Shown here piece by piece: positions 1 to 63,156 of a DNA stretch of 64,000 bases (positions are counted from its first letter, which is position 1; every line of letters starts with the position of its first letter). A program made the position numbers and the translations under genes. The DNA is from an uncultured Gammaproteobacteria bacterium. GTDB lineage: Bacteria > Pseudomonadota > Gammaproteobacteria > Eutrophobiales > Eutrophobiaceae. The notes below the pieces were generated by a model, which worked only from the letters and a program-made list of their open reading frames with translations, did not search any database and was not told the origin of the DNA. The DNA lies in assembly GCA_943788815.1 (NCBI GenBank), contig CALSRS010000001.1, forward strand, positions 900,069 to 964,068. The letters run 5' to 3'.

Positions 1-880
1 ATAATGTATTGAATGCAACGCTACGTAAAATCCCAGGCTCAGTATTAACCCAGACCCACATGGCTATTGCCGCAATCAATGCCTCAACCATAATTCCTGC
101 GGCCGCTACCAACATGCGCTGATGTTTATTTCGAAATGAAGCTGAAGATGAGGCGTCAACATACGGAACAGGCATAAAAATCAGGAACATTACCCCCATC
201 TCATGCACTTCCCCTCCCCAACGTTTAACCGCATAGGCATGACCGAACTCATGTACCAGTTTGACAATGGGATAGATTAACCAGATTAGAAAAAGATTTT
301 CCGTGGCCAGAATACGATCGGCAAGATTTTCGGTCAGTTGTGGCCAATGGTAAGCTGCCTGAGACAAAGCCCAGAGGATAAAAACCAGCCAGATCACCGC
401 CATGACCGGGTTATAAATCCATTTGCTGAACCCAGCAGTGCGGTTCAGAAAAGCTTCCGGATCAAGTAAAGGAAATTTGACGGCAAGCGGAGATTTAATG
501 ACTGACCAGAACTTGGTTTTTCTGGCCTTTTCACGTCGTTCATTTAATTCCAGAACATCAGGGGGCATATCCGTCTGAATAACATCAACACGATGTAATT
601 GGGATAAAAGTTTGATTACCTCATCCTGTGAGGGCATATCATCACCGAGTTGCTCACCGGCACAATGCCAGATATCTTCAAGTGAACGCTGTCCATTCAT
701 TAAACCAATTAACGAATATGCTTCGTCATTGAAACGATGAAATCGACCTGTAGCATCGTCTTGAATTACATACCAGACATCACCACGGTAGACATGACGG
801 TTAATCTCAACATGAGAACGTAATTTGGGTTTAAGATTGGCAACCCGATACCAGGATTCACTAAATAGTGAAACTGACAA
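1..880 (-). CDS. Peptidase M50 (site-2 protease family) membrane metalloprotease. Only the N-terminal ~293 codons are in the window; the gene continues beyond the window start. Probable TTG start at 878-880, directly after the TAA of the upstream gene.
   Basis: My own reverse-complement translation (this ORF is not in the supplied track because it has no stop in the window). It reads ...WYRVANLKPKLRSHVEINRHVYRGDVWYVIQDDATGRFHRFNDEAYSLIGLMNGQRSLEDIWHCAGEQLGDD...IWLIYPIVKLVHEFGHAYAVKRWGGEVHEMGVMFLIFMPVPYVD... The HExxH zinc motif (HEFGH, nt 236-262) lies inside a hydrophobic helix, as in M50 proteases. The ~60-aa N-terminal segment resembles a PqqD/RRE-like peptide-binding fold (…A..L..L.DG.R(S/T)L..IW…DV…L..L….VI…). 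It sits in the same frame immediately after the TAA stop at 881-883, which suggests translational coupling. Confidence 0.6.
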   Translation of the reverse strand, partial: MSVSLFSESWYRVANLKPKLRSHVEINRHVYRGDVWYVIQDDATGRFHRFNDEAYSLIGLMNGQRSLEDIWHCAGEQLGDDMPSQDEVIKLLSQLHRVDVIQTDMPPDVLELNERREKARKTKFWSVIKSPLAVKFPLLDPEAFLNRTAGFSKWIYNPVMAVIWLVFILWALSQAAYHWPQLTENLADRILATENLFLIWLIYPIVKLVHEFGHAYAVKRWGGEVHEMGVMFLIFMPVPYVDASSSASFRNKHQRMLVAAAGIMVEALIAAIAMWVWVNTEPGILRSVAFNTL

Positions 881-2707
881 TTATGGCCACCATTCCCACA
901 GTTTCAATTTAATCCACTGTTGCAGTGGATAGGTCCAGATCCAGATAAGCTTACGTTCGTCTACCTCGATCTTACCCACGCCTTCCATCCCTGGCCGCAA
1001 CTGTAAAATTGATTCACTTAAGGTCGCCTCGACACGAAAATAATTTCCGCCATCACGGGCCTCGGTTACCGGAGTAACCTGGGTAACAATAAAGTCAAAG
1101 GTATATTCAGGTAAAGAGTTAAGAATGAGACTGCCCTGCAACTGTTCTTCGATTTCAGACATTCTATGTTCATCTACCCAGAGAATGATGCGATATTTAT
1201 CAAGTGGCGCGACCTCAAACAACACCTCGCCCTGCTCTACCGCACTGCCCAATCGCTGACTCAACTCACCACTGACAACGAGACCATCGAACGGTGCAAG
1301 CAGACGGGTCCTTGATAGTTGACTTGAAATAAGTTCTAGTTGCGCATTGTTCTGCTCGAGCTGGGCCTGGATAACTTTTGCTTCGGACCGGTTCTGCTCG
1401 GCAACAGCACTCTCATACTGGCTTTGGAGTTTGGCTTGCTCACTCATAGAACCGAGTTTTTCCAAAGTCAGATCCCTGTCATCAAGGTTAGACATAATTT
1501 GCCCTTCGGTGACATGTTCTCCAGCCCTGACATTAGCAGATTCTAGATAACCATCAAATGGCGCAACAATGGCGCGGCGGATTGACGGCTCCAGGATACT
1601 GTCAGCGGCAACTCTATAAGTTCCGGTTGCAAAGTTAAAAAATACAACGAGGGTAAGCAGGCAGATGAGTGCTAGTTTTCGTCCGAGATAACCTTTACCT
1701 ATTATCCTTTGTAGTTGTTCCACAGTGGCAGTATATAAATGGAGATACCAGGATTTATCCTGCAAATATTTTGTGCGCAGGGCCTCGCCTGAGAGTGCGA
1801 CTATACTCTGAATCTGATCAACTTCATGTTCTAGAAAAGGTTTCTCGGAATCACGTTCCAGGGTAACCGCGGCAAAATATTCTTCACCTGAATGAAGTGG
1901 AATAGAAAGTAAACTGGCATTCCCATATGAGAGTGAAAATTGAGCATGCTCCCTGTCCACCAGTAATTTATTATCATGTTCACTATTGGGGTAATTGATG
2001 ATTCCACGCTGAACAACGGCTTCATCCATTACTCCAGCAAGACGACGAATCAAATTCATCTTTTTGCCAAATTGCGCACTATGAGAAAGAGCAGCTACTT
2101 CGATTTTCAAGCCTTTATTCATGCCAATACTTACTCGTTCACAATCGAACGCAGAGGTAAGTTTATTAACGAATGTCATGGAGGCACTATTAAATCCAGT
2201 TTCTGCAAGTACAGCGCCCAATAATTCCACTGCACCAGACAACCTATCAAGTTGAGTATTTTTCTCTTTGCCATCATGACGTCGCAAAAAGAGTTCTATC
2301 CAGGCACTACCCCACTGTATTTGTTCCATGATCCTGGGTAATGCTGATTGTGGTACGCGGACAGAAAGCGCGACAACACCTTTTAACTCGTTATCAAGCC
2401 GGATGGGAAAAGCTACACCATACATACCCGAACCAAGAGAATGAACAAGACCTGCGGCTTCTTCAATTGATTCCTCTAGCAGGGAAGTCAGACTAGTAGC
2501 GGGTTGGGTCTTTTCAGGCCACAGGGCCGCAGGTTGAAAACCTGATTCACCATTATCCAGAACCAATATAGCCTGACTGATGCTATCAAGCCGAATACAG
2601 ATTAATTCAAGCCAAAACTGGCAATATTCCTCATAGCTTGATGCAGCGGAAAAGTTGACCCAGACCTCACGCAAGCTGTTCTGGGTATCATCGGAATCAA
2701 TTTGCAT
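881..2707 (-). CDS. HlyD-family periplasmic adaptor (membrane fusion protein) with a ~320-aa N-terminal cytoplasmic extension predicted to contain tandem GAF-like sensor domains.
   Basis: 608-aa ORF. A single TM segment (LALICLLTLVVFFNFATGTY, aa ~325-345) is followed by a typical MFP periplasmic region. That region has a lipoyl-like hairpin (VAPFDGYLESANVRAGEHVTEGQIM…LLAPFDGLVVSGELSQRLGSAVEQGEVLFEVAP), a short coiled coil and a beta-barrel tail. The N-terminal 320 aa are hydrophilic with two alpha/beta repeats (e.g. …AILVLDNGESGF…GVVALSVR… and …ERVSIGMNKGLKIEVAAL…), consistent with GAF. The annotated ATG at 2705-2707 has no Shine-Dalgarno sequence (the upstream mRNA is CUUAUUCCUUCCUUGUU), so the true start may differ. 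Confidence 0.7.
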   Translation of the reverse strand: MQIDSDDTQNSLREVWVNFSAASSYEEYCQFWLELICIRLDSISQAILVLDNGESGFQPAALWPEKTQPATSLTSLLEESIEEAAGLVHSLGSGMYGVAFPIRLDNELKGVVALSVRVPQSALPRIMEQIQWGSAWIELFLRRHDGKEKNTQLDRLSGAVELLGAVLAETGFNSASMTFVNKLTSAFDCERVSIGMNKGLKIEVAALSHSAQFGKKMNLIRRLAGVMDEAVVQRGIINYPNSEHDNKLLVDREHAQFSLSYGNASLLSIPLHSGEEYFAAVTLERDSEKPFLEHEVDQIQSIVALSGEALRTKYLQDKSWYLHLYTATVEQLQRIIGKGYLGRKLALICLLTLVVFFNFATGTYRVAADSILEPSIRRAIVAPFDGYLESANVRAGEHVTEGQIMSNLDDRDLTLEKLGSMSEQAKLQSQYESAVAEQNRSEAKVIQAQLEQNNAQLELISSQLSRTRLLAPFDGLVVSGELSQRLGSAVEQGEVLFEVAPLDKYRIILWVDEHRMSEIEEQLQGSLILNSLPEYTFDFIVTQVTPVTEARDGGNYFRVEATLSESILQLRPGMEGVGKIEVDERKLIWIWTYPLQQWIKLKLWEWWP

Positions 2708-3148: not shown

Positions 3149-6100
3149 TTAATTTAACCTGATTCTTTTAAGTGCATTTTCCCACTCACTATGAGACACG
3201 AGCACATCATCTTCATCTCCTAAAAAACACTGACTGTTTTCATCCCAGTACCTGACTTTTCGCTGTTTATGATGCAACTTATCGATGCCTTTTTGATCTA
3301 TTCGTATATTACCTTTACGCTCGCCATTTGTCAGTTTCCAACCAGTTAATCCTGCAAGAAGAGCGGACTCTATCACTATACTATCAGAGTACTCCGCCAT
3401 ATTATCATCGGCAATAACTAAACCTTGTTGATCTTGAGCAGGTAGCATAAAGGTTGTACCTTCTGTATTAAGATCGTTCCTGTTCGCGCCAGCCGACTCA
3501 TCTTCTTGAGCATCAGTTTCTTCTTCTGGCACACCTGGCTCTGAGTCTTCAATTTCAGATGGATCCTGAATATTGGTAGTTTCTGTTGCTGTCTCGAGTT
3601 CCTGATTTTCTGTTTCATCTGGACCCTCTTGCTGAATATCAGGCCCGCCTTCTACTTCATTAAGTTGCTGATTTTCAGTTTCATCGCTATTTAACCTTGT
3701 CTCATCTACATTTATATACTCATAAGAATGCGTGTCGATAAAGCTCTGATATTCAATAATTCCTTCTCTGGAATAAATTGTCCCTGTGTCTTCATCAATT
3801 TCTTCCGGAACATCAGGCAAGTTCAGCGGGGCAAGAAGATTACCTACGGCTTCATTCTCTTCTTCCTTATTTTCATATAGTCCAGATGTGGTTGCAGCCA
3901 ATAAATCCAGAGAGCCTTGTGCAAGGTAAGTAATAGCAATTACTTCACCATCATCTTCGTTCTGAGTAAGATACGCATATTCACCAGACAATATGTCATC
4001 CGATAATACTGCATTAAATAAATCATTACCAAAGCCGCCAAACATACTGTCATTACCATCTCCACCATCGAGAACATCATCATCACCTATAAACAACTCC
4101 GTTGTTTCTGAAATAACCAGCTGGCCATTAATAAAGGTTGCCCTACCGCCGTCACCAGAAATAAAATCACTGCCTTCATCACCATATAGCTCGTCAGCTG
4201 CTGCGCCACCAATAATTACATCATCATCTTCACCACCATGGACCTCATCCTCGCCACCATTATCTGAGAAAAGACTCTCAACCATATCTAGTGTGTTGGG
4301 ATCGGAATCTGTTAAATTAAAGACAGCGATGCCAAGATCGCCAATCACTATATCCTTACCTGCGCCGGTAAATACTAATTCATTCCCCAACCCACCGATG
4401 ACAAGGTCATTACCGGCACCGCTATCGATGGTGTCATCACCAGATGTTGTCAGGTTTGTGTCCGTCGTAAAATACTCATCCGCCAGACCATTGATATAAT
4501 CGGCAATACCATTATCACCAAAGATAATGTTATCACCGTCTGCGATGGTTACCTGATCATCACCAACACCTGCAAATACCAGGTTATTTCCACCACTTAC
4601 AGAGATGATATCATCTCCGCCCAGGGCACTTAATTCGCTTTCAACCTGGACGCGTTCACCACTACTGCCATATCTGACTGTGCCATTATCACCCAAATAA
4701 ATACTGTTACCAGCGCCAGATTCTATGGTGTCGGCACCACCCCCACCGATCACAACTTTATCGCCATCGCCCATAGTTACATTATCATTACCACCTATAT
4801 TACTTTCGGTATTAAAAATAGTGCTCTTGATCCCCGCTGTCCACTGAATCTCGCCGTTATCCCCCATTACATAATCCGTACTGTCTCCGGTATCAATGTC
4901 ATCACCGCCCACACCACCAATCACCACATTTACATCCGTGGCACTGGCACCGCCCAGCGTCAGAGTGTCTGCACCACCAGCAGTGCTGGTGCTCTTCGCC
5001 ACTTCCAATATGTTATTGGCGTCATATCCAATCTCACCCTCATCACCCACCACATAACGTGTGCCCACACTGCTCAGCGTCGTCGTCACCGTGTCCTCAC
5101 CCAGTCCAGCTATTACCACCTTGTCACCACTGCCAAGGGTAATACTGTCATTGCCACCGGCCTCACCCAGATAACTCTGCATGTTAATCAACTGCTCAGA
5201 ACCCGCAGGTCCTGTATACGTCATCACACCGTTATCGCCCACAACATGGTCGGTACTCGTCGCCGCCACTACCGTAATCGTGTCGTCATCACTGCCACCA
5301 ATTACCTGGTTCACATCCCCCGACAAGGTGATCGTGTCCTGGCCACCATCAGCATTGGCCGTGCTCTTCACCGTGCGCAACGCGCCAGTCGCATAAACGA
5401 TCTCGCCGTTGTCTCCAATCACACGGTGTATGCCAGACGTCCCGGTGTCCACCGTGTCATCCGCCATACCGGCTATCACCGTCTTCGAGCCATTACCCAG
5501 GTCAATATCATCATTGCCGCCAAACGCACTGTTGAGGCTCACCATGCTATCGATAATGCCACCCGTCCACTGAATCTCGCCGTTATCCCCCATTACATAA
5601 TCCGTACTGTCTCCGGTATCAATGTCATCACCGCCCACACCACCAATCACCACATTTACATCCGTGGCACTGGCACCGCCCAGCGTCAGAGTGTCTGCAC
5701 CACCAGCAGTGCTGGTGCTCTTCGCCACTTCCAATATGTTATTGGCGTCATATCCAATCTCACCCTCATCACCCACCACATAACGTGTGCCCACACTGCT
5801 CAGCGTCGTCGTCACCGTGTCCTCACCCAGTCCAGCTATTACCACCTTGTCACCACTGCCAAGGGTAATACTGTCATTGCCACCGGCCTCACCCAGATAA
5901 CTCTGCAGGTTAATCAACTGCTCAGAACCCGCAGGTCCTGTATACGTCATCACACCGTTATCGCCCACAACATGGTCGGTACTCGTCGCCGCCACTACCG
6001 TAATCGTGTCGTCATCACTGCCACCAATTACCTGGTTCACATCCCCCGACAAGGTGATCGTGTCCTGGCCACCATCAGCATTGGCCGTGCTCTTCACCGT

Positions 6101-9100
6101 GCGCAACGCGCCAGTCGCATAAACGATCTCGCCGTTGTCTCCAATCACACGGTGTATGCCAGACGTCCCGGTGTCCACCGTGTCATCCGCCATACCGGCT
6201 ATCACCGTCTTCGAGCCATTACCCAGGTCAATATCATCATTGCCGCCAAACGCACTGTTGAGGCTCACCATGCTATCGATAATGCCACCCGTCCACTGAA
6301 TCTCGCCGTTATCCCCCATTACATAATCCGTACTGTCTCCGGTATCAATGTCATCACCGCCCACACCACCAATCACCACATTTACATCCGTGGCACTGGC
6401 ACCGCCCAGCGTCAGAGTGTCTGCACCACCAGCAGTGCTGGTGCTCTTCGCCACTTCCAATATGTTATTGGCGTCATATCCAATCTCACCCTCATCACCC
6501 ACCACATAACGTGTGCCCACACTGCTCAGCGTCGTCGTCACCGTGTCCTCACCCAGTCCAGCTATTACCACCTTGTCACCACTGCCAAGGGTAATACTGT
6601 CATTGCCACCGGCCTCACCCAGATAACTCTGCAGGTTAATCAACTGCTCAGAACCCGCAGGTCCTGTATACGTCATCACACCGTTATCGCCCACAACATG
6701 GTCGGTACTCGTCGCCGCCACTACCGTAATCGTGTCGTCATCACTGCCACCAATTACCTGGTTCACATCCCCCGACAAGGTGATCGTGTCCTGGCCACCA
6801 TCAGCATTGGCCGTGCTCTTCACCGTGCGCAACGCGCCAGTCGCATAAACGATCTCGCCGTTGTCTCCAATCACACGGTGTATGCCAGACGTCCCGGTGT
6901 CCACCGTGTCATCCGCCATACCGGCTATCACCGTCTTCGAGCCATTACCCAGGTCAATATCATCATTGCCGCCAAACGCACTGTTGAGGCTCACCATGCT
7001 ATCGATAATGCCACCCGTCCACTGAATCTCGCCGTTATCCCCCATTACATAATCCGTACTGTCTCCGGTATCAATGTCATCACCGCCCACACCACCAATC
7101 ACCACATTTACATCCGTGGCACTGGCACCGCCCAGCGTCAGAGTGTCTGCACCACCAGCAGTGCTGGTGCTCTTCGCCACTTCCAATATGTTATTGGCGT
7201 CATATCCAATCTCACCCTCATCACCCACCACATAACGTGTGCCCACACTGCTCAGCGTCGTCGTCACCGTGTCCTCACCCAGTCCAGCTATTACCACCTT
7301 GTCACCACTGCCAAGGGTAATACTGTCATTGCCACCGGCCTCACCCAGATAACTCTGCAGGTTGCTGAGTTTTTCTGCACCTGCAACACCTGAATAGGTC
7401 ACGATCCCCTGATCACCCAATATATGGTCGGTACCATTTGCACTGATGATCGTATCTATCCCGCCACCACCGAGAACGACATTATCCCCTTGACCAGCAA
7501 TGATCTGGTCATCACCCGGTAACACAGAGACCGTGGTCCTGGTCTGATACAGGACGTCTGTCAGTGTGACCTCACGGGCATCGAACACGGCTGGATTACT
7601 TTCTATGATGTGAGTGCCTGTCGTGGTGATCAGATCAACCGCACCATGGTCACCGAAAATAATATCGTTACTGAAATCAATTAACGGATCGGCATTAAGA
7701 ATTTCACCATAGAGATAGTCGTTACCATCGCCACCAAAAATAATGTCATCACCTGCATCGCCGTAGATGATATCGACACCGTCGCCGCCCTTGATAATAT
7801 CCTCATCATTCCCGCCCCGGATCCGTACCGCTAAATCTGCGGTGGAGGCATCGATAACATCGGCGCCAGCATTACCCCAGATCTGTATGCGGCGTTCTTC
7901 AATGGGTAGTAATAATAAATTATGTGCAGGCGCCAAAAGATTATCTGTGGCAGTGATAATGATATCGTCATTACCTTCATTGGCATATAACTCTGTAATG
8001 GTAATGCCGGTCATCTCAATACTGCTCACGGTAATGGTATCGTCACCCTTACCGGCCCATACCACCAGGCCATTGTTAAAATCCCCACCCGCGGCATCAT
8101 AATTAATCGTGCCAACGGCCAGACCGCTGATACTGCCGTCTGACATCTGTGCATTTTTAGCTACGGTGTTATCAAAATCACTGATAAAGAGGGCGTTATT
8201 ACCGACGCCAGCATCAATGTTCAACTCACCCTGTACACCATCGAGATTCCCGTCGGCAAGTAACTGGTTAACAAAATAACCATCGGCAGTGGAGCTAACA
8301 TGGAATTGCTCGTCACCCACACCGGTATTAATGTTGGTGACGGTATTAAGGCTAGTGGCCTGGACATTAATAGTGTCAGTTCCGCTCCCCGTGTTGATAG
8401 TAAGGGTGTCAATTCCATAATAGTTAATGCCATCAGTCCGGGTTGCCAGTTCAGTATCACCAACAATGTCATTGATATCTGTGGCCAGGATACTGTAACC
8501 GGCATATTCACCCTGGAAGGTAAAGATAAAATCATTATCGGCTTTGACTACCGAGAAGTTATCCGTCTCAGGGTAGAATTGACGGCGTTCCTGGGTATTA
8601 TTCGGATTAAACAGGTAGTTGAGTTCGTCAAACCAGGTATCTGCATCAGCGGGATTTGCCTTAAGTTGCGGGATATCGCCGGCGCTGAAAGTCACGGACC
8701 CAACCGGAATGCCGGTGTGGTCAAGGTCACCTGGTGCGTAAACTGTTAAAACTATATTTCCACTTCCTACACTGATGGTTTGTACGGTATTTAATTCTGG
8801 TGTAGTAGTACCTTCTGTCAGGTAATTCACCCTGGCCCGTGGTGCGAATGGTGTTGTATCCGATATGGTCAGGTCGCGATGCTGGGCTTCCAGGTCAGTA
8901 AAATCTACCGTGCCGGTAGTGTAATCAACAACATATGTCCTGATTCCGCTATTAATACTCAAATTAACATTAATATTTACATCGTCTTCAATCAGTAATA
9001 ATTGTGCGACCGCTACCTTCATGTCGGCATCAGAAGCGGTAGATTCCAACACAACCTGATCGGATATTGCCCCGTCATCCCCCCTGGCCAATAACACGTA

Positions 9101-12100: not shown

Positions 12101-15100
12101 AGACGATGATGCCTGCGCGCTGGCCTTCTCAACACCGTCTATGGTGACAGTCCAGACCTTGCCGCTATAGACCGATTCCGAAGAAAAGTCATGCACATAC
12201 GTATCAAAGAATTTGACATCCGGGTCTGGGTCCTTATTCAATGTGGCGACCTTGTTTTCCACAAAGTGGAGGCTATCCACATCGAAGGGGGCATTTCCCG
12301 TTGCCGTGATTAACAGGGTATTTTTAGCCGTGTCCAGCGTGAATACATACCCCGGGAAGGCCGCATCAAGATCACTGAGCAGATCGGGGTAGACAGTAGC
12401 CGGACTACCACTGGTTGCGAGGGTGATTGAAGTTGTACTACCGTCGAGTTCAAAGTCCCAGACCTCACCGGCAACAAAACTGGTTTTGATTTTGGTAATA
12501 TCAAGTTTACCAACAAAATCGTCATCATTACTTTGTGTGGCAAAATAACTGATTTCAGTTTGCTCATCGTTCACAGCATTTGCCAGGCTAAAGCTTATGG
12601 TCGGTGCTGATGACAAATCAGTGTCATTGGTATTGTAGATATATGCGCTCGATGCCGAGGATGATTTCTGAACTTCATAGTTACCGTTTGCCGAGTATGC
12701 TGTATCGATGAGATCCAGCAAATCGCTCTGGCTGGTAGCTGATGCCGATGAACCACCGATGGTGTATTGGCCCACAATCCCTGTATTACTGATGGTCAGT
12801 TTGCGTGCCTCGAACAATGACTCCTCGGTAGCGACAGTATAATCCGCACTATCAACAACTATTGGCTGAGTATTATCACTATCCGTTAGAACAAATAGGC
12901 TACTGTTATCAGTTAGTGTGTATCCCGAGGTAGCTGTAGACCACACAGACCCGTCGAAGGTAAAATCAATATTGGTGCTGCCATTAATGACGATTTTCAG
13001 TAAATCTCCATTTTGTGCAGCTGTAAAACTGGCTGGATAGGCAATATTCGCACTACCATACAAATCAATATTGGACGGAGTAATGTTACTTAGTGTCTGG
13101 TAAGTGGCCGATACAGTGGTGATGTCTGTATCGCCATTATTTGCAATTAGTCGGCCACTATTGTCCAGGTCAAAATCTACATCACTAGAGGCCCATGCAC
13201 CCGCTGCAGTAGTATCATATTCAAAGGTAACCGTGATACCTGCAGGGCTGCCAGTCGGGTAGCTCGTGGTGTTCATGTTCACGGTAACCCTATCCCCGCT
13301 GTTGGGGCTGAGACCTGTAAGATCAGAAACCAGGAAAGCGGGGGCGTTTCTTAAGGAACTTAAAGCCTCGGTAACCGATACATCATCGTATATGGCGCTA
13401 TTAACCGTAAATGTGCCTGTAGAGGTTCGGCTGATTTCAAAATCAGTCGTACTGTCGACCATCTCATAAGTCCCATTAGAAGAAGTCCAGGTTGTGCCAT
13501 CGAAGGTAAAGGTTACGACAAATACAGAGCCATCTGTGATAATTGCCTTAAGGGTATCGCCTGTGGCCGGTATTACCGCCGGGGAGGACGGATACGTAAT
13601 ATCCGCTGGATCACCGGACGCAAAATTTCCAGTTGCATCGGTTATTGTCAGAGCATGGGTATAACCAGGATTAAATACTGCATTGGCCAATACCACCGCT
13701 GCATTAATATTATTTCCGTTAACTACTTCAAACTTCGAAGCAGGAACGGTGACATGCGTCAATGTATGATCCGGGTCAGGTGTAGTCCATGTGCTACCAT
13801 TATAGGTGAACACAACGGAATTTGTATTGATCTCGACGGTAATGGTTGAACCGGTTACGGGGGTAGTCGAAGGATCATTGATGGTCGCTGCACCGTATTC
13901 TGTCGTGTCATTATGGGACTGCGTTGAAACTGTAAAGTAATCGGCTGTATTGATATCAATATCAACCACGGTACCATCCGTGGAAGTAATTTTTCCCGTT
14001 GTCTCATTAAGGGAATAAACTGCGTCGTTGCTGGACCAGGTAACCCCATCATTGGTGATGAATGTGACCGTAGCATTGGTTCCAGAGGTACCGGCATCCT
14101 GATTGGTATCAAGGCCTACCTCGACATAATCACCGATGGCCGGAGACAGTGCCAATGATGCTTCACCACCCACCACCGGAGCGTCCGTCAGGGCGGTTAT
14201 GGGTAGCACCTGCCGCAAACTGAAGCTTGATGGTGAGGCAGAAGTATCCACCAAGATATAGGTACCGTCAATTTCCAGGGGATCAGTAAAGTTGGCATCA
14301 GCCGTATATGCAGCCACAAACGATTCGGCAAAATCATTTTCCAAACCCAGGTCCGCCACGGTAAAGGTAAAACTATTACTCCCGTCACTGAATGTCCATT
14401 TTGTCCCCACAGAGGCAGCGGCCGGTACAGGTATCAATACAGCAGCAGCCTCATTAACCGTTGGCAACTCTACGTTGTCGTAATTGATATCGAGACTGTA
14501 GGTATAACCTTCGCCTGCGGGCACCGTTATTTCCAGGGTAGTGCCATTTCTGTTTGCACTGCCACCGATCAACTGTACAAGCCTGTCGATCACCTGGGTC
14601 TGGTTGGCATAAGTTGAACTGGTTGTTACTTTATGGGTAACAGGTGTTCCACCATTGTCTATGGTCAGGATCCAGTCTTCTTTATTATAGTTGACAGTGG
14701 CTGAACCAAAATCCACTTCCATCTTCTGTCCAACACCGATTTCTGCGGGTATGCCAGTTAGCGTGACTGAAGGTGTATTTGTTTGATCCTGACTGGTCCT
14801 GGTATGTTCCACCCAGACGGAGATGGCCGCCGCAGATCCCGAGTAAACCAGGTTATTACCACTCTTGCTCAAACCAATCAGGCCGTCAAATTCAGTGGCC
14901 AGATTATCCGTAGAGCTGAGTACGGTGTAGCTTTCTATAGTATTTCCAACCTGGATAAACCACTCATCTCCATTCTCAAGATTATTGAAATTATTGAAGG
15001 TAATGGTCGCATTGGTAAAAAGAATATCGCCGTTACCGTCATGATTATCAATCACTGTTGTCCTGGCAGTGACTCTGTCCGCGGGTTGCTTGACTGTCAG

Positions 15101-36100: not shown

Positions 36101-39100
36101 AAGACCAAAGGCGGTCGCTTCGTACACTTCCAATATCAGATCACCCGATGGACGTACCTCGCGGCCAAAATATGAGGTTCCCAAATACTCCCATTCATAC
36201 ATGCGCAACTTGCTTCCATCTTCGAGAATTACAACCTTCGATATCTGATCTCCATCAACACCGTTAACAGGGTTATAGATACCTGTAACAAACGTGGTTC
36301 CACTCGATGACCAGCGTTCGGTATAAATCTCAAGCTGGCCATTTTCGAGCTGGCCCTCGCTGTTTAATGTCCCTCCGACGATCCGACCCAGTACGTCGCG
36401 ATCCACACCCACCATCTCATCCACCAGAGTCTCCAGAGCTTCGAGGATGAGGTCGAGGGAAATCCCATTGAAGCTGAATAAATCTTCAAGACCTGAAATC
36501 TCGATAATATTCGGCAAATTCAGCAAAAAGCCTGCCAGTCCAGCATCTTCAGGTAAAGCACTTGAAGTCGCCGATATCAGTGCCGAACCATCACTCAACT
36601 CGCCAAAGGCACCGGTTGGAACAATAGGCAATAAGAGCTCTAACTCCGTATTGCCACCAAGAGATGGAAAACCGAGTAGACCACCATTGCTATCACCCGT
36701 GATAGCATCCAGTGTCAACCTCCCTGGAATACCAAGTTCAATTTCGGTATCAAAATAAGCCAGACCATCTTCAACTGCGATACCGATAGGGCCTAGACTT
36801 GCTTCAAGTGAGAAGGCCTTACGGATTTGACCGCTGACGGTATCAGAATCAATGAACTCTTCGACTAGAATTTCAGTATCCCCATCAACCAGGGTGACAT
36901 CCAATACAGTGTAAACACCTGGATTATCAAGCGAACCTGTGACATAAAAAGTATCACCAACCTGAAGGTTTACTGCAAAGCGATCGGTGCCGGTATGATT
37001 ACCGGTAACAGTAAAACTATTATTTTCGCTATCCACAGCAATAATTTCGAGGGGCGCATCACCAAAACTCAACCCTGCAGCGAAAGTGGGGTCACTTACA
37101 AAGAAAGTGCCATTATCAGACAGACCAAAACTAAAATTCAGACCCAGATCTGCACTAAATATAAACGGGTTTGATTGTTCAATCTCCAGACCAATGTCGA
37201 TCGCAGGAAAGTTAAAATCGCCCGGGAAGTCGAGCGTCAGGCCATCAAGAGAAAGGTCAATCTCCTGCCTGAAAGAGGCAAGATCGATTTCAGCGCGAAA
37301 CTCGGTAAGATTTGAGGAATCCGTCGCAGCAAGGGATATGGAACGTCCTGCCGACAATAATCTGGAATTGACCACTTGGCGGAGCTCGTCGGTATCAGGT
37401 TCAAGCACATCAATATCATTGAAGTAATTCATCACCTCATCTGCGAGGGCACCCAGATCGTCTAATATCAACTGTGTTATGGAATCCAATGCCCCATCCA
37501 GTCCAAGCAGCGACGAGATACTTTTATCGGTAAAAGGCAGATCACCGGCACTATTAATATAATCAGCGATATCGTCTCCGATATTCTCCGCCCAGTCGGA
37601 AAACTGGTCCAGGCCATGACCCAGGGCGTTTTTATCAACACCGAGTATATCAGCGGCATCCGTGGTCGTTGGCAACGCCCTGACGTCGGCGGAAACCTCG
37701 GCATTCATGATTGAGCCAACAGTGCTGATGTCGACGAGACCGAGTACATGGCCAATCTCATGGGCTGCAACGGTAAGCAGGTCAATGGTGCCATCGCCGG
37801 GGGCCGGCCCGGTGGCGGCATTGGTATGCCAACCATAGCCAGCGGCATCATCGTCTATAAAAATAACAAATTCACCACTACCATTAAGTCCGGCATGCCC
37901 GAGGATCAGGTCATCAAGAAAGTCAGGGTGAGTTTCAAAGTCAATTACTTCATAACTGATGGTATCAAGCTGGTTCAGAACCGGAGAATCTGCTGATAAC
38001 GGGCCGATGGCCCAGCTGGCAATCGCCGCATCCTTAACTTCCTGGGCGATGTCGTCACCAAGGGTCAGGGTGCTGCCCTGTAATGAAGGTCCCGGCCCAT
38101 CGGCAGCCACCTGAGGCAGGAAGAATTTTTTCTTTAATTTTTTTGCAAGCTTTTCACCGAATGAGTCCGTGCTTACCACTTCAAAATTGCCATATGCCAC
38201 TACCGAATCTGTGACTACGCCACCAACCTCAAAATAATAAATAGTTGGTGAATTGTCTCCGATGATACTGATCAGATCGCCGACCGGGTTCTCGCTAAAT
38301 AGATTGGCAATCCCGTCGACTGCCTGTCGTATTAGGGTATCCTTCGGTAATGCTGAGAAATCAAGGATATCGAGACCACCACCACTGATGACAATGTCGT
38401 GGCCCCAGCCGGATTCAAACGAGAAAACATTGCTACCATGATTACCGATAAGTAAATCATTACCTTCGCCACCACGGGCGTTTTCAATGCTGGTAAAAAT
38501 ACTGGCATCGTTCGGTGCGGGACTGAACTTAATCAATCCCGGGGCATCGGCAATCATTTTTGTACCTGCTATGATGCCGGTTGTGGTTGTGGTGAGGGCT
38601 GGTGTGACACCGTCCGTCACCAGATACCATGTTTTGCCAGCAGCGCCAATGAGGACATTGACATTGCCACTGCCAACCGCACCCAGGTCTTCAAGTTCAC
38701 TCATAAGGGTTGATGCGTTGGCATCGAATGAAATCTGTGAGGTTTTATCGGCCCCATCACTTATTGAGAAGATACCAGCATCGGCATCGATGCTGAGGAC
38801 TTCATAGACTTGTGCCAGACTGCCACCGGCATTGACGGCAATGCTGACTCCTGGCGGCACGGTGCCAATTTTACCGATAACAAGCATAATGTCCTCGGCG
38901 CTACCGATATAAGCATCCCCATCAATGCCGTTAACTGCGGCGGCAAGCCCGGAGGCTACATCCTGGGGAGTGTCTCCACTGGTAACTGTGTACATGTAAG
39001 CATTAGTGTCCACGGTCACGACCCATTCGTCACCAACGACAACAGACACCGCTGTAAGGTCGATGGTTACCGTAACGACATTGGTCCCCAGAGTCATATC

Positions 39101-49618: not shown

Positions 49619-50959
49619 TTACCTCTCCAACATCTGGTTGATCTGTTGCAGATCATCTGGAGTCAGAATACCAACCAGCGCCTTGAGCCTGAGCCCATTC
49701 AACAAATAATCATATTTTGCTCCTGCCAGGTCTCGTTTAACGGCATATAGATCACGTTCCGCATCGAGCACACTAATGGCTGTCTGTAACCGTGCTTCAT
49801 AGGCTGCACGCCTTAGATCCAGTGTTGCCTGCTGTGCGGAAAGTGCCTGTTTCAATGCATCTATTCTCTTTACCGCTGTCTCAACACTCCAGTAAGCATC
49901 TCGGGACTGACGCCGTGACTCGCGCATGATTCGAGTCAGTTCTTGCAAGGCACTACTATGGCGGGCAATCGCTTCGCGTTTTTTTGAACTAACCGCACCG
50001 CCAGAGTACAAGGGCATTGAAAATCTCAGCAAAATCTCCTGGGTCCCAACTTCGCTACCGCCGCCAAACAGCGTTCCTTTGGTATCCTGATTGTTATAAC
50101 GTGCAACTGCATCCAGTGTCGGATAATGCCCGGCTTTCTGGCGGGTAATTTCCGTACTCGCAACCTCAACCGCATGCTGCTGGGCCACCAGTGCCGGGTT
50201 TTGTTTCATGGCAGCATCCACCCAATGCTGCTCATCTGCGGGTTCAGGACTCCGCAGGGTGATCTCTTCCTGCAAGGCATTTAAAGAGTCTGCGTCTCTC
50301 CCCACGATTTCATAAAGTGCCTCTTGAGCGTCTCTCAACAAAACCTGCGCAGCAGCATAATCCGCTTCGACAGATGCCATTCTTGCCAGGGCATCATAGG
50401 TATCAACTGAGCGACCCACCGCAGCCTGTTCCCTGCCCCTTGCCAATTCCAGTTGTTTTCCTACTGCGATGCGTTCTGCATCCAGAAAACTGATTTCATC
50501 CTCAGCTGCGAGGGCAGAAAGATAGGCCTCGGATACCCGTAGTATTAAGTCCTGCTGTGCCTGTATCAGTTTCGCATCTGCCAATTTCAATTCTTCTTTT
50601 GCCTGACCAATACGCTTATAATTGGCATACCTGAAAATTGGCTGACTGACCGACAGTGTCCACGTGGTGGTAGGAAAGCTGGTCTTACCCTGTTCAAACA
50701 CAGCATTATCACTGCGCTTGATTTTCTGGGTGGTTTCGATCCTATCCACCTCGAAAGTAGCCGTTGGTCGATAGCCAGCCCAGGCCTGGGGTATGACTTC
50801 CTGGGTTGCGGTATGATCAAAGATTGCTGTGTTTAATTTGGGATCAGCCTGAAGTGCCTCCTGGTATAACCCAAGAAGATCATCAGCATTAGCTGAAGAT
50901 AATAAAAGAATAAATAAAAGAACAATCCTGTAAGCAGGAGCAATTAAAAACCGTTCCAT
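49619..50959 (-). CDS. tolC: TolC-family outer-membrane channel protein (type I secretion outer-membrane component).
   Basis: 446 aa with an N-terminal signal peptide (LLFILLLSSANA) and the motif DDLLGLYQEALQADPKLNTA typical of TolC N-termini. Two internal repeat halves have a coiled-coil/beta pattern. The gene lies 258 bp upstream of the giant gene on the same strand. Confidence 0.85.
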   Translation of the reverse strand: MERFLIAPAYRIVLLFILLLSSANADDLLGLYQEALQADPKLNTAIFDHTATQEVIPQAWAGYRPTATFEVDRIETTQKIKRSDNAVFEQGKTSFPTTTWTLSVSQPIFRYANYKRIGQAKEELKLADAKLIQAQQDLILRVSEAYLSALAAEDEISFLDAERIAVGKQLELARGREQAAVGRSVDTYDALARMASVEADYAAAQVLLRDAQEALYEIVGRDADSLNALQEEITLRSPEPADEQHWVDAAMKQNPALVAQQHAVEVASTEITRQKAGHYPTLDAVARYNNQDTKGTLFGGGSEVGTQEILLRFSMPLYSGGAVSSKKREAIARHSSALQELTRIMRESRRQSRDAYWSVETAVKRIDALKQALSAQQATLDLRRAAYEARLQTAISVLDAERDLYAVKRDLAGAKYDYLLNGLRLKALVGILTPDDLQQINQMLER

Positions 50960-51264: not shown

Positions 51265-51624
51265 ATGAGCAATAATAGCGAGAAATTAGTTAAAGATATA
51301 CGTCGTCGTACCCGTAAGAAGTATTCCTCTGAAGAAAAGATCCGAATTGTACTGGAAGGGATGCGTGGAGAAGAAAGCATTGCCGAGCTGTGTCGCCGTG
51401 AAGGATTGAATCAAAACGTGTATTACCGCTGGAGTAAGGAGTTCCTGGAAGCGGGTAAACAGCGTCTGGCGGGCGATATAAAACGGGAAGCAAACTCCAC
51501 TGAAGTGACCGACCTGAAGAAAGAAAATGACCAGCTCAAACGCCTGGTGGCTGACATCATGCTGAAGAACGAGGTACTTAAAAAAAGTGTGCTTGGCTTG
51601 GAGTCGACCTGGGAAGACGAATGA
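51265..51624 (+). CDS. IS3-family transposase OrfA (HTH, leucine-zipper-like C-terminus).
   Basis: 119 aa. The protein …EEKIRIVLEGMRGEESIAELCRREGLNQNVYYRWSKEFLEAGKQRL… is characteristic of IS3/IS911 OrfA. Confidence 0.85.
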   Translation: MSNNSEKLVKDIRRRTRKKYSSEEKIRIVLEGMRGEESIAELCRREGLNQNVYYRWSKEFLEAGKQRLAGDIKREANSTEVTDLKKENDQLKRLVADIMLKNEVLKKSVLGLESTWEDE

Positions 51625-52607
51625 GTCTTTCAGCAGCTGAAAAGCTGGAAGTGATCCGCTTGGTAGAGGCGTCGGAATTACCCGTGAAACGCACTCTGGC
51701 CGAGTTAGGTGTGAGCCGCAGCAGTTTCTATCGTTGGTATCGGCAATACCTGGATGATGGTCCAGAGGGCCTGGAGCCAGATAATCGGTCCCCGAGACAG
51801 TTCTGGAATAAGATACCTGAGATGGTGAAGGAGCAGTGTCTGGAGCTCGCGTTACAGTACCCTGACAAATCGCCTCGGGAACTTGCCTGGACCATCACCG
51901 ATGAGCACAACTACTTCATCTCGGAATCCAGCGTTTATCGACTGTTAAAGCAGTACGATCTCATTACCAGTCCTGCTTATATCCTGATGCAAGCGGGTGA
52001 TTCGTTTCAGAATCCAACACGACGAGTCAACGAGCTTTGGCAGACTGACTTCACCTACTTTCGTATTGTTGGTTGGGGGTGGTATTACCTGTCCACTGTT
52101 CTAGATGATTACTCCCGCTACATCATTGCCTGGAAGTTAACAACCAGCATGGCAGCTGATGACGTGAAGCAGACGCTGGATGCGGCGATTGAGACCACGG
52201 GAGTCAACGAGATAACGGTCAAACACCGACCTCGCTTACTGAGTGATAACGGGCCTTGTTATATCTCCTCGGAATTGAAGGATTATCTGAGTAAATATCA
52301 GATGCAACACACCCGTGGCGCACCGTACCATCCCATGACACAAGGCAAGATAGAGCGATATCACCGCTCCATGAAGAACGTCGTGAAGCTGGAGCACTAT
52401 TATTATCCGTGGGAACTCGAACATGCTATCCGGCAATTTGTACAATACTACAATCATGAACGTTACCATGAGTCACTTGATAATATTACGCCGGCAGATA
52501 TGTATTTTGGCCGCTATCATGAAATTATGGATAGAAGAACCATTATCAAATACGAAACATTACAACAGAGGAGAAAGGAAAATTTAAGAATATATATAAA
52601 TCAGTGA
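51621..52607 (+). CDS. IS3-family transposase OrfB (integrase/rve DDE catalytic domain).
   Basis: 328 aa. The protein …WQTDFTYFRIVGWGWYYLSTVLDDYSRYIIAW…LLSDNGPCYISSELKDYL…HTRGAPYHPMTQGKIERYHRSMK… shows the D, D(35)E motifs of the rve domain. It is in the -1 frame relative to orfA (gacgaATGAgtc). Confidence 0.85.
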   Translation: MSLSAAEKLEVIRLVEASELPVKRTLAELGVSRSSFYRWYRQYLDDGPEGLEPDNRSPRQFWNKIPEMVKEQCLELALQYPDKSPRELAWTITDEHNYFISESSVYRLLKQYDLITSPAYILMQAGDSFQNPTRRVNELWQTDFTYFRIVGWGWYYLSTVLDDYSRYIIAWKLTTSMAADDVKQTLDAAIETTGVNEITVKHRPRLLSDNGPCYISSELKDYLSKYQMQHTRGAPYHPMTQGKIERYHRSMKNVVKLEHYYYPWELEHAIRQFVQYYNHERYHESLDNITPADMYFGRYHEIMDRRTIIKYETLQQRRKENLRIYINQ

Positions 52608-52895: not shown

Positions 52896-52938
52896 CCAGA
52901 TATAACAAAGGGGCTGAAAGCCCCTTTGTTATATCTGG
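52896..52938. other. Perfect 18-bp-stem hairpin overlapping the tRNA-Ser CCA end.
   Basis: ccagatataacaaagggg ctgaaag cccctttgttatatctgg. There is no U-tract after it on the minus strand (AAGAAAAAAG follows), so it is not a canonical intrinsic terminator. Confidence 0.6.
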
Positions 52939-53026
52939 CGGAGAGAGAGGGATTCGAACCCTCGATGGGCTTTTGACCCATACTCCCTTAGCAGGGGAGC
53001 GCCTTCAGCCACTCGGCCATCTCTCC
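52936..53026 (-). tRNA. tRNA-Ser (anticodon GCU), 91 nt including the encoded CCA.
   Basis: Reverse complement: GGAGAGATGGCCGAGTGGCTGAAGGCGCTCCCCTGCTAAGGGAGTATGGGTCAAAAGCCCATCGAGGGTTCGAATCCCTCTCTCTCCGCCA. It has a 7-bp acceptor stem, a D-arm, an anticodon stem CTCCC/GGGAG with loop CUGCUAA, a long variable arm, a T-arm GGTTCGAATCC and a terminal GCCA. Its position downstream of csrA matches the serV context in enterobacteria and pseudomonads. Confidence 0.9.
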
Positions 53027-53282: not shown

Positions 53283-53480
53283 CTAATCTGCTTCGGGATT
53301 ATTTCCTTCATCGTCATTTTCGTGCTGAATTTTATCGTAGATCTCTTCGCGATGAACTGCGACATCTTTAGGTGCATTGACCCCAATACGAACCTGATTC
53401 CCTCTGATACCTAACACTGTGACATTGACATTGTCACCGATCATCAATGATTCACCTATCCTGCGTGTCAATATTAACAT
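53283..53480 (-). CDS. csrA: Carbon storage regulator CsrA (RsmA), an RNA-binding global regulator.
   Basis: 65 aa. [48 protein letters not shown] is near-identical to the canonical CsrA core and is followed by an acidic tail. Confidence 0.93.
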
Positions 53481-60654: not shown

Positions 60655-61647
60655 TTATTTCTTGTCAGTCAACTGAGAGGAGATATCTGACAACAAATTT
60701 TCATTCGCATTTTCTGCTGCGGCTTTAGCCGCCATAGCACGTTCTTTTATGCGTTTCATATGTTCTAGCGTTGTCGTTGAATTTGCATATTCTCTTTCTG
60801 CCTCATCAAGCTCTTCCTTAAACCCTGCAAGATCTGCTTGTAGCTTCTTGCGCAGTTCCTCTTCTTCTGCTTTTTTCTTTAGCAGGTCTTCTTCGTTGAC
60901 CTTTTGAGCGACAACAACTTTTTCTTCTTCTTTTTCTGCCTTCGCAGCTGATTCTGCGGCCAAGGCCAGTTTTTGCTGGGCAGACTTAATCTTTGTTTGC
61001 ATCTGGTCCTTTATCGCCTCACTGACAGTAACGTCTTCCTGGGCCTGTTTGACCTTTAATGCAGTAACCTCAGCTAATGCCGCTCTTTTCATTGCCTCAG
61101 CTTCTGCCTTGGCTTTGTGAATTTCCTGCATAGCGATTTGTATTTTTTTCTGTTCTTCTTCGAGCTTCATGCGCTCTTCCTTGATGCGTTGCTCTTGCTC
61201 ATCTCTGGACTGATCCTGCTTCGCCTGCATTTCCTTGACCATCAATTCCGCCTCTTCCTTGGCGGCGGTCCGGGCTGCTTCTGCAATTGCCTTTTCTTTA
61301 CGGGCTGTCTCAATTTCAATATTATTCCTGGCAACCTCCTCAGCCAGTTTTCGGCGTTCTATCTCGAGCATTTTTCTGGCTTCCAATTCGATTTTTTTCC
61401 GCATCTCCTCCTGGGCTTGTTGCTGTTTGATCGCAGCCTCTTCCATTGCCTGTTTTGCTGCTTCCATTTCCATCTTTAACTTCTGCGTATCCTGCTTGTT
61501 TTTCCTGGACTCCTCGGCTTCTTTTTCCAGACGCTCTCTGTCGACTTTCAGTTTTGCCTCTGTATCCGCCTTGAGTTGTTCAAGCTTTTCCATTTCTTCA
61601 GCATTTTTTGCGTAAACGTCCTCAATCTTTTTCCTTTCTTCTTGCAT
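60655..61647 (-). CDS. K/E/A/Q-rich coiled-coil protein. Very likely the 3' portion of a single ~833-codon gene interrupted by an in-frame TAG at 61651-61653.
   Basis: 330 aa of near-continuous heptad-like charged sequence (…EEAEESRKNKQDTQKLKMEMEAAKQAMEEAAIKQQQ…). The reading frame is continuous with the upstream ORF: the reverse complement of 61641-61665 reads GTT CAG CAA CAA GCC GAT TAG CAA ATG CAA GAA. Confidence 0.5.
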   Translation of the reverse strand: MQEERKKIEDVYAKNAEEMEKLEQLKADTEAKLKVDRERLEKEAEESRKNKQDTQKLKMEMEAAKQAMEEAAIKQQQAQEEMRKKIELEARKMLEIERRKLAEEVARNNIEIETARKEKAIAEAARTAAKEEAELMVKEMQAKQDQSRDEQEQRIKEERMKLEEEQKKIQIAMQEIHKAKAEAEAMKRAALAEVTALKVKQAQEDVTVSEAIKDQMQTKIKSAQQKLALAAESAAKAEKEEEKVVVAQKVNEEDLLKKKAEEEELRKKLQADLAGFKEELDEAEREYANSTTTLEHMKRIKERAMAAKAAAENANENLLSDISSQLTDKK

Positions 61648-61650
61648 TTG

Positions 61651-63156
61651 CTAATCGGCTTGTTGCTGAACTATCTTGAGCCTCTCTTCCTCCTGCTGAC
61701 GCATCTTCTGGACTTCCGCTTCAACCTTTACCCTCTCAGCCTTTAAGCGTTCTTTTTCTTCTTCAAGCTTTTTAGCGGTTTCCTGATTACTAATGACCGT
61801 TTGATCAGATTTTTTTGCACGTTCTATCTCCATGCGGGTCCGTGTCAGCTCCGTGTCTATCATCGTAGCCATAATCTCGGGATCCATCTCTTCATCTTCA
61901 ACACCTGAATCTTGAGTAGGCACGGGAGCCTTCACATCATGTTTAGCAGGTTCTGCCGATGATGTTGCGGCTTTTTCTCTAGAAGCTGGTTTTTGAGTAT
62001 CGGATTTGGCTGGTGGTGGTGGTTTAGGTATCTGGGTTACTTCATCATCAGGCGCAAGTTCCGGGTGATTTACCAGACCACCGTCCAGATAAAATGCGTT
62101 TATCCCTCTGTCAGTTAATAAAAATGCACCTGCCGAACTACGTCCTCCGGTATCACAGTACACTACATAATGTAGACTGGGGTCCAGCTTGTCTGCCTGC
62201 ATACGCAAGATATTCAGTGGGACATGAATTGAGCCATCTATGTGCGATCTCTCATGCTCATTTTTAAACCTTACATCAAGCCACTTACCGCCCTGGCTTA
62301 TTATCTCCTCAGCCTTTTCATTTGAAACAGCCTTGAGTGTCGAGCTCTGAATTAGGGAAACAAAGTTATCCTTGCTTAACTGGGCAACAAGACCATCTGT
62401 TTTCATTCTGATTGTGGCATTACGGACAGTTTCGGTAATCAAGGCCTCTTCACCGAATCCATCTCCCGCAGATAATTGTGCGAGTTTTAATTCCTTGGCA
62501 CCGGGTTTAGTCTGGCGCAATACATCGCATTTTCCTTCCTGGATTATATAATAATGCTCACCCGTCTCTCCCTGGGTAATAATATTGTCACCTTTTTTGT
62601 ATTCTATGGGTTCCAACAACACAAACAACTTATGCATATTTGCTGACGGCATGCTTGCAAAAATTTCTGACTGCAACATCCGAGTCATCCAGTCCACGCT
62701 TTCATTTTCATCACCATCTATAATATCAACTTCAAGGGTGGAGGTGTTGTCTCCAAGACCATCACCGAACGCATCAGCTGACTCCCCTTGCCCCTGATGC
62801 ACAACCAGTAATTTATCCAGGCTGTTCCGATCAATTCGCATGACGATAGAGTTCACTTTTGCAACACCTGTAAACTGCCGTGGTTGAAGCTGAGCCATGG
62901 GATACTTAGATCTATCAGTTGATGCCTTGATTGAACTGCTGACCTGAGCGTTTGCGACCAGATCGATTTCACCTTCTATGAGGTAAAAAGAGTAACCGTC
63001 CCTGTCTCCTTGATTAAATATCTGATCTTTCTTATTAAGTTCGATAAGGTCAGCATTTTTGATGATCTCATTTTGGACCTCGGCAGGTAATTCATTGACC
63101 GGGATCAACTGACGGATAGTCTCAGCGTATGCTTGTTTTTCTTCAGGTATGGCCAT
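61651..63156 (-). CDS. Multidomain signalling protein with two cyclic-nucleotide-binding (CAP effector-like) domains, a rhodanese domain, a Pro-rich linker and the start of a coiled coil.
   Basis: 501 aa. The cNMP-binding-like segments are …FNQGDRDGYSFYLIEGEIDL… and …ITQGETGEHYYIIQEGKCDVLR…GDGFGEEALI…R…T. The rhodanese core is …WLDVRFKNEHERSHIDGSIHVPL…YVVYCDTGGRSSAGAFLL… (catalytic Cys in CDTGGRS). A PPPP linker is followed by a K/E coiled coil. Confidence 0.7.
   Translation of the reverse strand: MAIPEEKQAYAETIRQLIPVNELPAEVQNEIIKNADLIELNKKDQIFNQGDRDGYSFYLIEGEIDLVANAQVSSSIKASTDRSKYPMAQLQPRQFTGVAKVNSIVMRIDRNSLDKLLVVHQGQGESADAFGDGLGDNTSTLEVDIIDGDENESVDWMTRMLQSEIFASMPSANMHKLFVLLEPIEYKKGDNIITQGETGEHYYIIQEGKCDVLRQTKPGAKELKLAQLSAGDGFGEEALITETVRNATIRMKTDGLVAQLSKDNFVSLIQSSTLKAVSNEKAEEIISQGGKWLDVRFKNEHERSHIDGSIHVPLNILRMQADKLDPSLHYVVYCDTGGRSSAGAFLLTDRGINAFYLDGGLVNHPELAPDDEVTQIPKPPPPAKSDTQKPASREKAATSSAEPAKHDVKAPVPTQDSGVEDEEMDPEIMATMIDTELTRTRMEIERAKKSDQTVISNQETAKKLEEEKERLKAERVKVEAEVQKMRQQEEERLKIVQQQAD

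Follow-up and report, generated by a model that had tools for sequence, protein, structure and literature searches.

We analyzed a 64,000-nucleotide stretch of DNA (hereafter, the window) from an uncultured gammaproteobacterium, which encodes on its minus strand a giant protein of 15,403 amino acids (aa) (Table 1). An earlier note on this DNA had claimed that a metzincin-like HExxHxxGxxD motif lies in the middle of the giant, and this was borne out. Translation of the giant open reading frame (ORF) reproduced exactly the peptide quoted there, GYGWHTNAATGPAPGDGTIDLLTVAAHEIGHVLGLVDIS, and the motif, HEIGHVLGLVD, proved to be the sole HExxH in the whole protein. The codons of H3867 (37760–37762) and D3877 (37730–37732) both fall within 37650–37960, the interval that the note had assigned to the motif. 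From the giant's own composition, HExxH would be expected 0.065 times and HExxHxxGxx[HD] 0.0007 times, both values being low because His makes up only 0.9% of residues. These statistics, together with the fold described below, rule out a chance motif.

Around the motif lies a metzincin-like domain of ~190 aa, present in single copy and with non-repetitive surroundings; BLASTP found no second copy in the giant. Pfam detected no domains elsewhere in the protein beyond LEPR-XLL/DUF4347, scattered RTX blocks and the Peptidase_M10 match discussed below. The flanking genes encode a TolC-family channel on one side and, on the other, a DUF3467 protein, an HlyD-type membrane-fusion protein (MFP) and an M50-type protease.

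Table 1. Features of the giant gene, its metzincin-like domain and the adjoining genes. Residue numbers refer to the giant protein and positions to the window.
Feature	Residues (aa)	Position	Strand	Basis or remark
Giant ORF, 46,212 nt	15,403 in all	3149–49360	minus	carries the domain
N-terminal LEPR-XLL motif (..FEQLEPRILLSAD..)	21–43	49232–49300	minus	NF012209, 32.3 bits (cut-off 17)
DUF4347 domain	212–360	48281–48727	minus	PF14252, 165.8 bits
RTX-like calcium-binding cap upstream of the domain (GGEGNDLLIGNHGSNVFSFESGWGHDIVISGGGLDILDFSA)	3627–3670	38351–38482	minus	kept with the domain in orthologues
Whole metzincin-like module	3762–3956	37493–38077	minus	bounds from family HMM
Catalytic core	3769–3905	37646–38056	minus	model secondary structure, Pfam PF00413, Foldseek
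Zinc-binding motif HEIGHVLGLVD	3867–3877	37730–37762	minus	ORF translation; H3867, H3871 and D3877 putative zinc ligands, G3874 turn glycine
E3868, putative general base	3868	37757–37759	minus	within HEIGHVLGLVD
Met3885, Met-turn methionine (GSIMNAE)	3885	37706–37708	minus	family Met aligned to karilysin Met
Post-Met-turn segment NAEVSADVRALPT	3886–3898	37667–37705	minus	family-invariant Arg3894, near-invariant Pro3897 (L..G.RxxP)
Long helix C and C-terminal extension (..GL.QFSDWAENIGDDIADY....LPF..)	3899–3956	37493–37666	minus	
TolC-family outer-membrane channel		49619–50959	minus	immediately upstream of giant; PF02321; TIGR01844, 270.9 bits (cut-off 225)
DUF3467 protein, 105 aa		2817–3134	minus	immediately downstream of giant
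HlyD-type MFP, N-terminal GAF domain		881–2707	minus	
PqqD-like/Peptidase_M50 intramembrane metalloprotease, first 293 aa		1–880	minus	HEFGH motif; gene runs off window

Fold and closest protease relatives

The module at aa 3762–3956 is a metzincin, nearest to the matrixins, and sequence and modelling point to a complete and probably active zinc protease domain. On the excised region, Pfam Peptidase_M10 (PF00413) scored 31.9 bits (gathering cut-off 24), and a scan of a 5,000-aa segment still gave 27.7 bits. The profile hidden Markov model (HMM) of the domain's own family scored the module at 174.7 bits (E = 5.5e-53) in a tiled search and at 167.6 bits on the whole protein. A search of the PDB with the domain as a single sequence returned karilysin and matrix metalloproteinases (MMPs), weakly. 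With a profile of 35 homologues, karilysin was matched at E = 5e-9 along with dozens of MMPs. This profile also aligned helix A (..AI.rW..), and the family Met fell on the Met of the karilysin SALMY Met-turn.

Structure prediction gave a similar picture. An AlphaFold2 model of aa 3750–3960, built from the 35-homologue alignment, had a mean pLDDT of 88.6 and a pTM of 0.77, and its secondary structure follows the metzincin order, from helix A through several strands to the active-site helix and a long helix C. Within the core, helix A (DDIAQEVKDAAIASW) is followed by strands SYEVI, ILGHAGL and FVIFID and by the DDDAAGYGW segment, after which the chain enters active-site helix B, passes through the Met-turn and begins helix C. 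When the model was compared with the PDB using Foldseek, each of the 50 best matches was the catalytic domain of an MMP or of karilysin, with MMP-11 at the top (1hv5_B; E = 3.8e-6, probability 1.00, target-normalised TM 0.57). Met3885 lies 8 residues past D3877, and in MMPs the Met-turn methionine follows the third ligand at the same spacing. Fold similarity to metzincins and a downstream Met-turn, whose absence had been set beforehand as counting against the claim, are thus both present, and this favours a metzincin. The segment that follows Met3885 probably forms a wall of the S1' pocket. The C-terminal extension beyond it is common to only a subset of the family, the closest homologues included.

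Resemblance to the matrixins extends to details. The segment (I/V)DL(L/I)TVAAHE(I/F)GHxLGL is almost identical to IDLITVAAHEIGHLLGI of karilysin, from Tannerella forsythia. Helix A with its conserved Trp and the DDDxxxxGW segment are shared too, as is a Met-turn at equal spacing; the MMP counterpart of DDDxxxxGW reads HFDDDE.W. Yet the domain departs from the matrixins in several respects. Where these have HExGHxxGxxHS, the giant reads GLVDIS, with Asp3877 as third ligand instead of His-Ser. The PRCGxPD cysteine switch is missing, since the giant has just four cysteines (aa 298, 5474, 5522 and 15378), of which those nearest to the domain are at 298 and 5474. Family alignments revealed no conserved N-terminal pro-segment. 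Matrixins are secreted zymogens, whereas this domain forms part of a 15,403-aa protein; it also bears the L..G.RxxP segment peculiar to its family and a long helical tail.

The earlier note had likened the motif to the zinc sites of serralysins, matrixins and snapalysins alike. Its matrixin (M10A) part is the one that stood. A serralysin-type (M10B) unit, as in the RTX proteases of classical type I secretion systems (T1SS), might be suspected from the RTX repeats in the same protein, the RTX-like cap just upstream of the domain and the TolC/MFP context. Indeed, serralysins likewise combine a metzincin unit with Ca2+-binding RTX repeats in one polypeptide and leave the cell through a TolC channel, as is predicted here. 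But the motif of the giant ends in VD rather than HP, and its Met-turn, SIMNA, lacks the Tyr of SxMSY. The serralysin profile NF035945 of NCBIfam matched only RTX repeats at aa 917–965 (24 bits; cut-off 500), and the structural neighbours listed were all MMPs and karilysin. Domain order and size differ as well, and the locus has no ABC transporter. A serralysin-type unit is therefore essentially excluded.

Snapalysin (M7) of Streptomyces is a small metzincin with HExxHxxGxxD, an Asp third ligand and a Met-turn (PMC3890501). The domain in the giant shares these three traits. However, the snapalysin profile (NCBIfam NF033628) gave 12 bits against a cut-off of 300, and snapalysin was not among the top structural matches, so this likeness did not hold. 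Minizincins (M94; DUF1025, Acel_2062) carry HEXXHXXGXXD in a small intracellular zincin domain with no Met-turn (PMC3890501). They too were rejected: the giant's domain has a conserved Met-turn and a host protein predicted to be exported, and PF06262 gave no match at E ≤ 10.

Conservation of the catalytic residues

By its sequence, the domain falls into a large bacterial subfamily that Pfam could already recognise but that is uncharacterised. Scanned exhaustively with HMMER, 1.84 billion representative sequences yielded 768 family representatives at E ≤ 1e-3, and a profile search of a 5.8-billion-protein set yielded 516 matches at E ≤ 1e-5; among the matches listed from the latter set, about half carry a precomputed PF00413 assignment. 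A homologue search with the single sequence returned one match at E ≤ 1e-3, a sparse result attributable to database size, which the exhaustive scan and the profile search overcame. Similarly, a scan of genome contigs with the single domain gave no match, and one with a 4-sequence alignment as query succeeded.

The family signature is DLLTVxxHExGHxLGLx[D/H], followed by 5–11 residues and then [LIV]M..L..G.RxxP. In the 35-sequence alignment, W95, D111, H118, E119, G121, H122 and R145 are invariant, the last of these also in the alignment with the closest homologues. We counted conservation over the 151 domain copies in the top family matches. HExxH is intact in 146. Of these, 142 have Asp (87), His (51) or Glu (4) as third ligand, 135 have a Met 5–11 residues past it, and 128 show the G.R pattern after the Met. 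The three closest homologues (39–43% identity) have His where the giant has Asp3877. Because Asp and His both occur within one family, the two appear to substitute freely, and the Asp is no mark of snapalysin ancestry. Exchange of Asp and His at the third ligand is also seen among known metzincins.

These counts bear on whether the domain is a pseudo-protease, that is, a metzincin fold that has given up catalysis and persists in a structural or ligand-binding role. A few copies have lost HExxH: single substitutions account for two (P0087 and P0115), and the other three (P0009, P0051 and P0120) are degenerate second copies. The structural-metal sites of MMPs do not appear to be conserved, and the copy of Pelomonas has Lys at the third-ligand position together with a 40-aa insertion. 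All this would suit a dead scaffold. But the copy in the window has every catalytic residue intact, and retention of HExxH in 146/151 copies, with D/H/E as third ligand in 142/146, would be unexpected for such a scaffold and argues for retained catalysis. Moreover, most degenerate copies sit beside an intact one in the same protein. A pseudo-protease is thus quite improbable. In the three proteins with two copies, all from outside the window, the degenerate copy reads, for example, HELAQKL or HEIAIKL.

Some family members look like small stand-alone proteins of 150–280 aa. They come from long contigs, start abruptly and have no signal peptides. For these reasons they are probably fragments, and they were left out of the case for autonomous enzymes.

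The giant, its relatives and their export locus

For its first ~4,450 aa, the giant has its closest orthologue in a 4,425-aa metagenomic protein (P0003), which is collinear with that part and carries the domain at aa 3759–3937. The block around the domain (aa ~3,600–4,450, including the RTX-like cap) is the best conserved, with ~40% identity versus 30% elsewhere. The same sequence also occurs in a metagenome-assembled genome of Planctomycetia (L002). This orthologue (L001 and L002) is labelled Planctomycetia, whereas the housekeeping synteny of the window looks gammaproteobacterial; either horizontal transfer of the giant gene or a mis-binned contig could account for the discrepancy. In L001, the 4,425-aa gene has directly behind it another gene, encoding at least 7,432 aa, possibly reflecting a split of the giant gene. 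Another example is an 8,531-aa DUF4347 protein encoded on a Dolichospermum plasmid, in which the domain holds the only HExxH and has the same C-terminal helical extension.

Other features of the giant concern its repeats. The motif G..GND.L.G..G.N.F.F...WG.D.I.......D.LDFS recurs many times along the protein, as at aa 3627–3670, and seems to mark where one segment gives way to another, otherwise unrelated one. Near the C-terminus (aa ~13,990–14,800; window ~4960–7400, minus strand) a 242-aa (726-nt) unit is repeated in tandem ~3.5 times; this period exceeds the limit of Tandem Repeats Finder, which accordingly reported nothing. The first three units are 99.6–100% identical in protein. Long, nearly identical repeats of this kind are prone to assembly collapse, and in one contig (L045) the giant gene is split into several ORFs.

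To learn how regularly the domain accompanies such giants, we compared loci that share the neighbouring genes. In two loci found with the domain as seed, one in Pelomonas candidula and the other on Sinorhizobium chiapasense pA, the giant is followed immediately by the same genes as in the window. Plasmids were then searched with the M50 protein, chosen as seed to avoid the ascertainment bias of loci found through the domain, and seven loci were read (37–42% identity). Each of them has a giant ORF of 4,033–12,918 aa immediately upstream, and in five the LEPRxLLSAD N-terminus is visible. The giants were scanned by tiled family-HMM search with --max; a full-length hmmsearch missed the copy of Pseudosulfitobacter, presumably owing to length or bias filters. 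Three of the seven (about 40%) carry the domain, each as one single intact copy: Pseudosulfitobacter (aa 12,660–12,813 of 12,918; HEFNHMLNSPH), Mesorhizobium ciceri (aa 8,594 of 10,518; HEIGHVLGLPH) and Rhizobium sp. WSM1274 (aa 8,517; HEIGHVLGLGH). The tiled search found no domain in the giants of Methylosinus, Pontibrevibacter, Alisedimentitalea and Thalassospira. One embedded copy is likewise present in the giants of Dolichospermum, Sinorhizobium and Pelomonas, and across giants the domain lies anywhere between 25% and 98% of the way along the protein. Hence, the domain is a recurrent but optional module of LEPR-XLL/DUF4347 giants.

This distribution bears on whether the domain is a built-in autoprocessing or shedding protease. 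Such an enzyme would cut the giant in cis, or between neighbouring molecules, and free the ~11,500-aa C-terminal part or a protein held at the surface. The idea is modelled on the cysteine protease domain of MARTX and on LapG-mediated release of LapA. These, along with the FrpC self-processing module, are internal processing systems of giant secreted toxins and adhesins. In each, as here, a protease is tied to a very large secreted protein of RTX type, but the analogy is functional only, because the Cys protease of MARTX and the Asp-Pro autocleavage of FrpC are unrelated to the giant's metzincin in chemistry and fold. In line with autoprocessing, the domain is present once, far from both ends of the giant, and P0003 keeps it at the same position; its catalytic residues are strongly conserved, and there is no separate pro-domain. 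Its location 100–300 aa from the C-terminus in Sinorhizobium and Pseudosulfitobacter, and at ~80% of the length in Mesorhizobium and Rhizobium, would be compatible with clipping of the end. Yet the domain is missing from four of the seven giants that share these export genes, so that processing by it cannot be needed in general, and its position is far from constant. No conserved candidate cleavage site was identified. Furthermore, the M50 enzyme encoded at the locus, which is related to leader peptidases of ribosomally synthesized and post-translationally modified peptides (RiPPs), is a better candidate for maturation. An obligatory role of the domain in processing, release or maturation is therefore unlikely, and autoprocessing or shedding as its main function is the foremost rival reading, though an improbable one. 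What is left for the domain is possible action on external substrates or optional self-shedding.

The C-termini of the giants allow a further comparison. Those of Sinorhizobium (L050) and Pseudosulfitobacter (L054), in which the domain lies near the C-terminus, are alike over the last ~25 residues (..W....GLL.RL.SLF..), which may constitute a signal or anchor motif. The giant of the window ends differently, in ..SEWENALKRIRLN.

The genes around the giant also form a recurrent set. On longer contigs from this organism, the giant is followed by DUF3467, HlyD/GAF, the M50 protein (715 aa), a SecA-like ATPase (660 aa) and a second MFP. The same set follows the giant ORF in nine other proteobacterial loci, seven of them M50-seeded and two domain-seeded. 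NCBIfam relates the M50 protein to RiPP leader-cleaving proteases of the daptide and YydH/LiaK families; on the ATPase it gives a sub-threshold SecA match, and we call the protein truncated SecA-like. The conserved order is TolC, giant, DUF3467, HlyD/GAF, M50, (SapC), SecA-like, second MFP (window 1–2707 and 49619–50959; L043 10001–16767). The giant locus lacks the full gene set of a classical ABC-type T1SS: TolC and MFPs are present, whereas an ABC transporter was found neither there nor in the related loci read, and the M50 protein and SecA-like ATPase are found instead. Its gene content suggests that the locus serves specifically to export and mature LEPR-XLL megaproteins, without an ABC transporter. 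A literature search on LEPR-XLL, DUF4347 and the M50/HlyD/SecA combination turned up nothing functional and no description of the locus. The same genome contains a second LEPR-XLL/DUF4347 gene ~8 kb past the HlyD gene (L043, from 20071 onward). The giants of the window, of L043 (from 20071 onward) and of L054, L055, L056, L057 and L059 all start with a basic stretch and then ..(F/L)E.LEPR(I/V/L/F)LLSAD, a start at which the adjacent M50 protease or the SecA-like ATPase could recognise or cleave the protein.

On the TolC side, the giant locus borders on a tRNA gene and an insertion sequence, an arrangement common among genomic islands. The TolC gene is separated from the run tRNA-Ser(GCT)-csrA-lysC-alaS-recX-recA by an IS3-type element with orfA and an rve integrase (51265–52607, plus strand; 52936–53026 and 53283–53480, minus strand). 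Near recA is a gene for a 501-aa protein with cyclic-nucleotide (cNMP)-binding and rhodanese domains (61651–63156, minus strand); Pfam gave no match for the 330-aa ORF beside it (60655–61647).

Predicted activity and significance

We consider it likely that aa 3762–3956 constitute an autonomous, slimmed bacterial metzincin of the matrixin fold, an optional payload of the giant that acts in trans as an extracellular or surface-tethered zinc endopeptidase. What we infer about its metal, activity, time of folding and substrate can be put as follows. One catalytic Zn2+ would be held by His3867, His3871 and Asp3877, with Glu3868 activating the water as general base and Met3885 forming the Met-turn beneath the metal. 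The edge strand ILGHAGL and the post-Met-turn segment with Arg3894 would provide the surface on which a substrate strand docks. Latency, which in this protein would not involve a cysteine-switch propeptide, could be achieved if the chain stays unfolded and metal-free until its TolC-dependent export. The domain would then fold outside the cell, beside the Ca2+-binding RTX cap. Its targets in trans might be environmental proteins, proteins of neighbouring cells or of a matrix, or other copies of the giant.

Several observations weigh against this interpretation. The PF00413 alignment covers only profile positions 91–154 of 159, the C-terminal 40% of the model, and the Foldseek TM values are moderate (0.41–0.58) with high root-mean-square deviations. 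In a larger-context AlphaFold2 model (aa 3576–4446, 5 sequences), pLDDT was 46, so confidence is low for the neighbouring segments around the cleft. Between helix A and helix B, the family consensus shows no conserved set of His and Asp like the one that binds the structural Zn and Ca of MMPs (the S-loop), and the single His there, in ILGHAGL, is specific to this copy. As these ligands do not appear to be conserved, the stability and activity of the domain could differ from those of MMPs. Nearly all family members are annotated as hypothetical protein, and the literature searched contained no biochemical study of any of them. Finally, action in trans is preferred over action in cis only indirectly.

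A bolder proposal, which we regard as speculative and unlikely, is that the domain is a payload, or a Ca/Zn-triggered self-shedding device, of LEPR-XLL giants exported by a TolC/M50/SecA-like/two-MFP/DUF3467/SapC system. The giants with the domain would then make up a 'protease-on-a-stalk' subclass, serving as weapons or as matrix remodellers.

The protease domain itself is a solid but not a surprising find, the family having been recognisable beforehand. It does provide a definite and testable predicted enzymatic function for a small part of a 15,403-aa protein nearly devoid of Pfam matches. E3868 and H3867 are clean targets for mutagenesis, and the ~200-aa domain should express alone. The conserved export locus, with no ABC transporter, is more unusual than the domain. 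Bacterial relatives of MMPs, such as karilysin, are usually discussed as rare, horizontally acquired curiosities. Our data point instead to a slimmed matrixin-like domain, with Asp and His interchangeable as third ligand, that is a recurrent and strongly conserved module of bacterial megaproteins. Its hundreds of 50%-identity clusters, from Planctomycetota, Cyanobacteriota, Pseudomonadota and others, suggest that the pool of bacterial MMP relatives is far larger.

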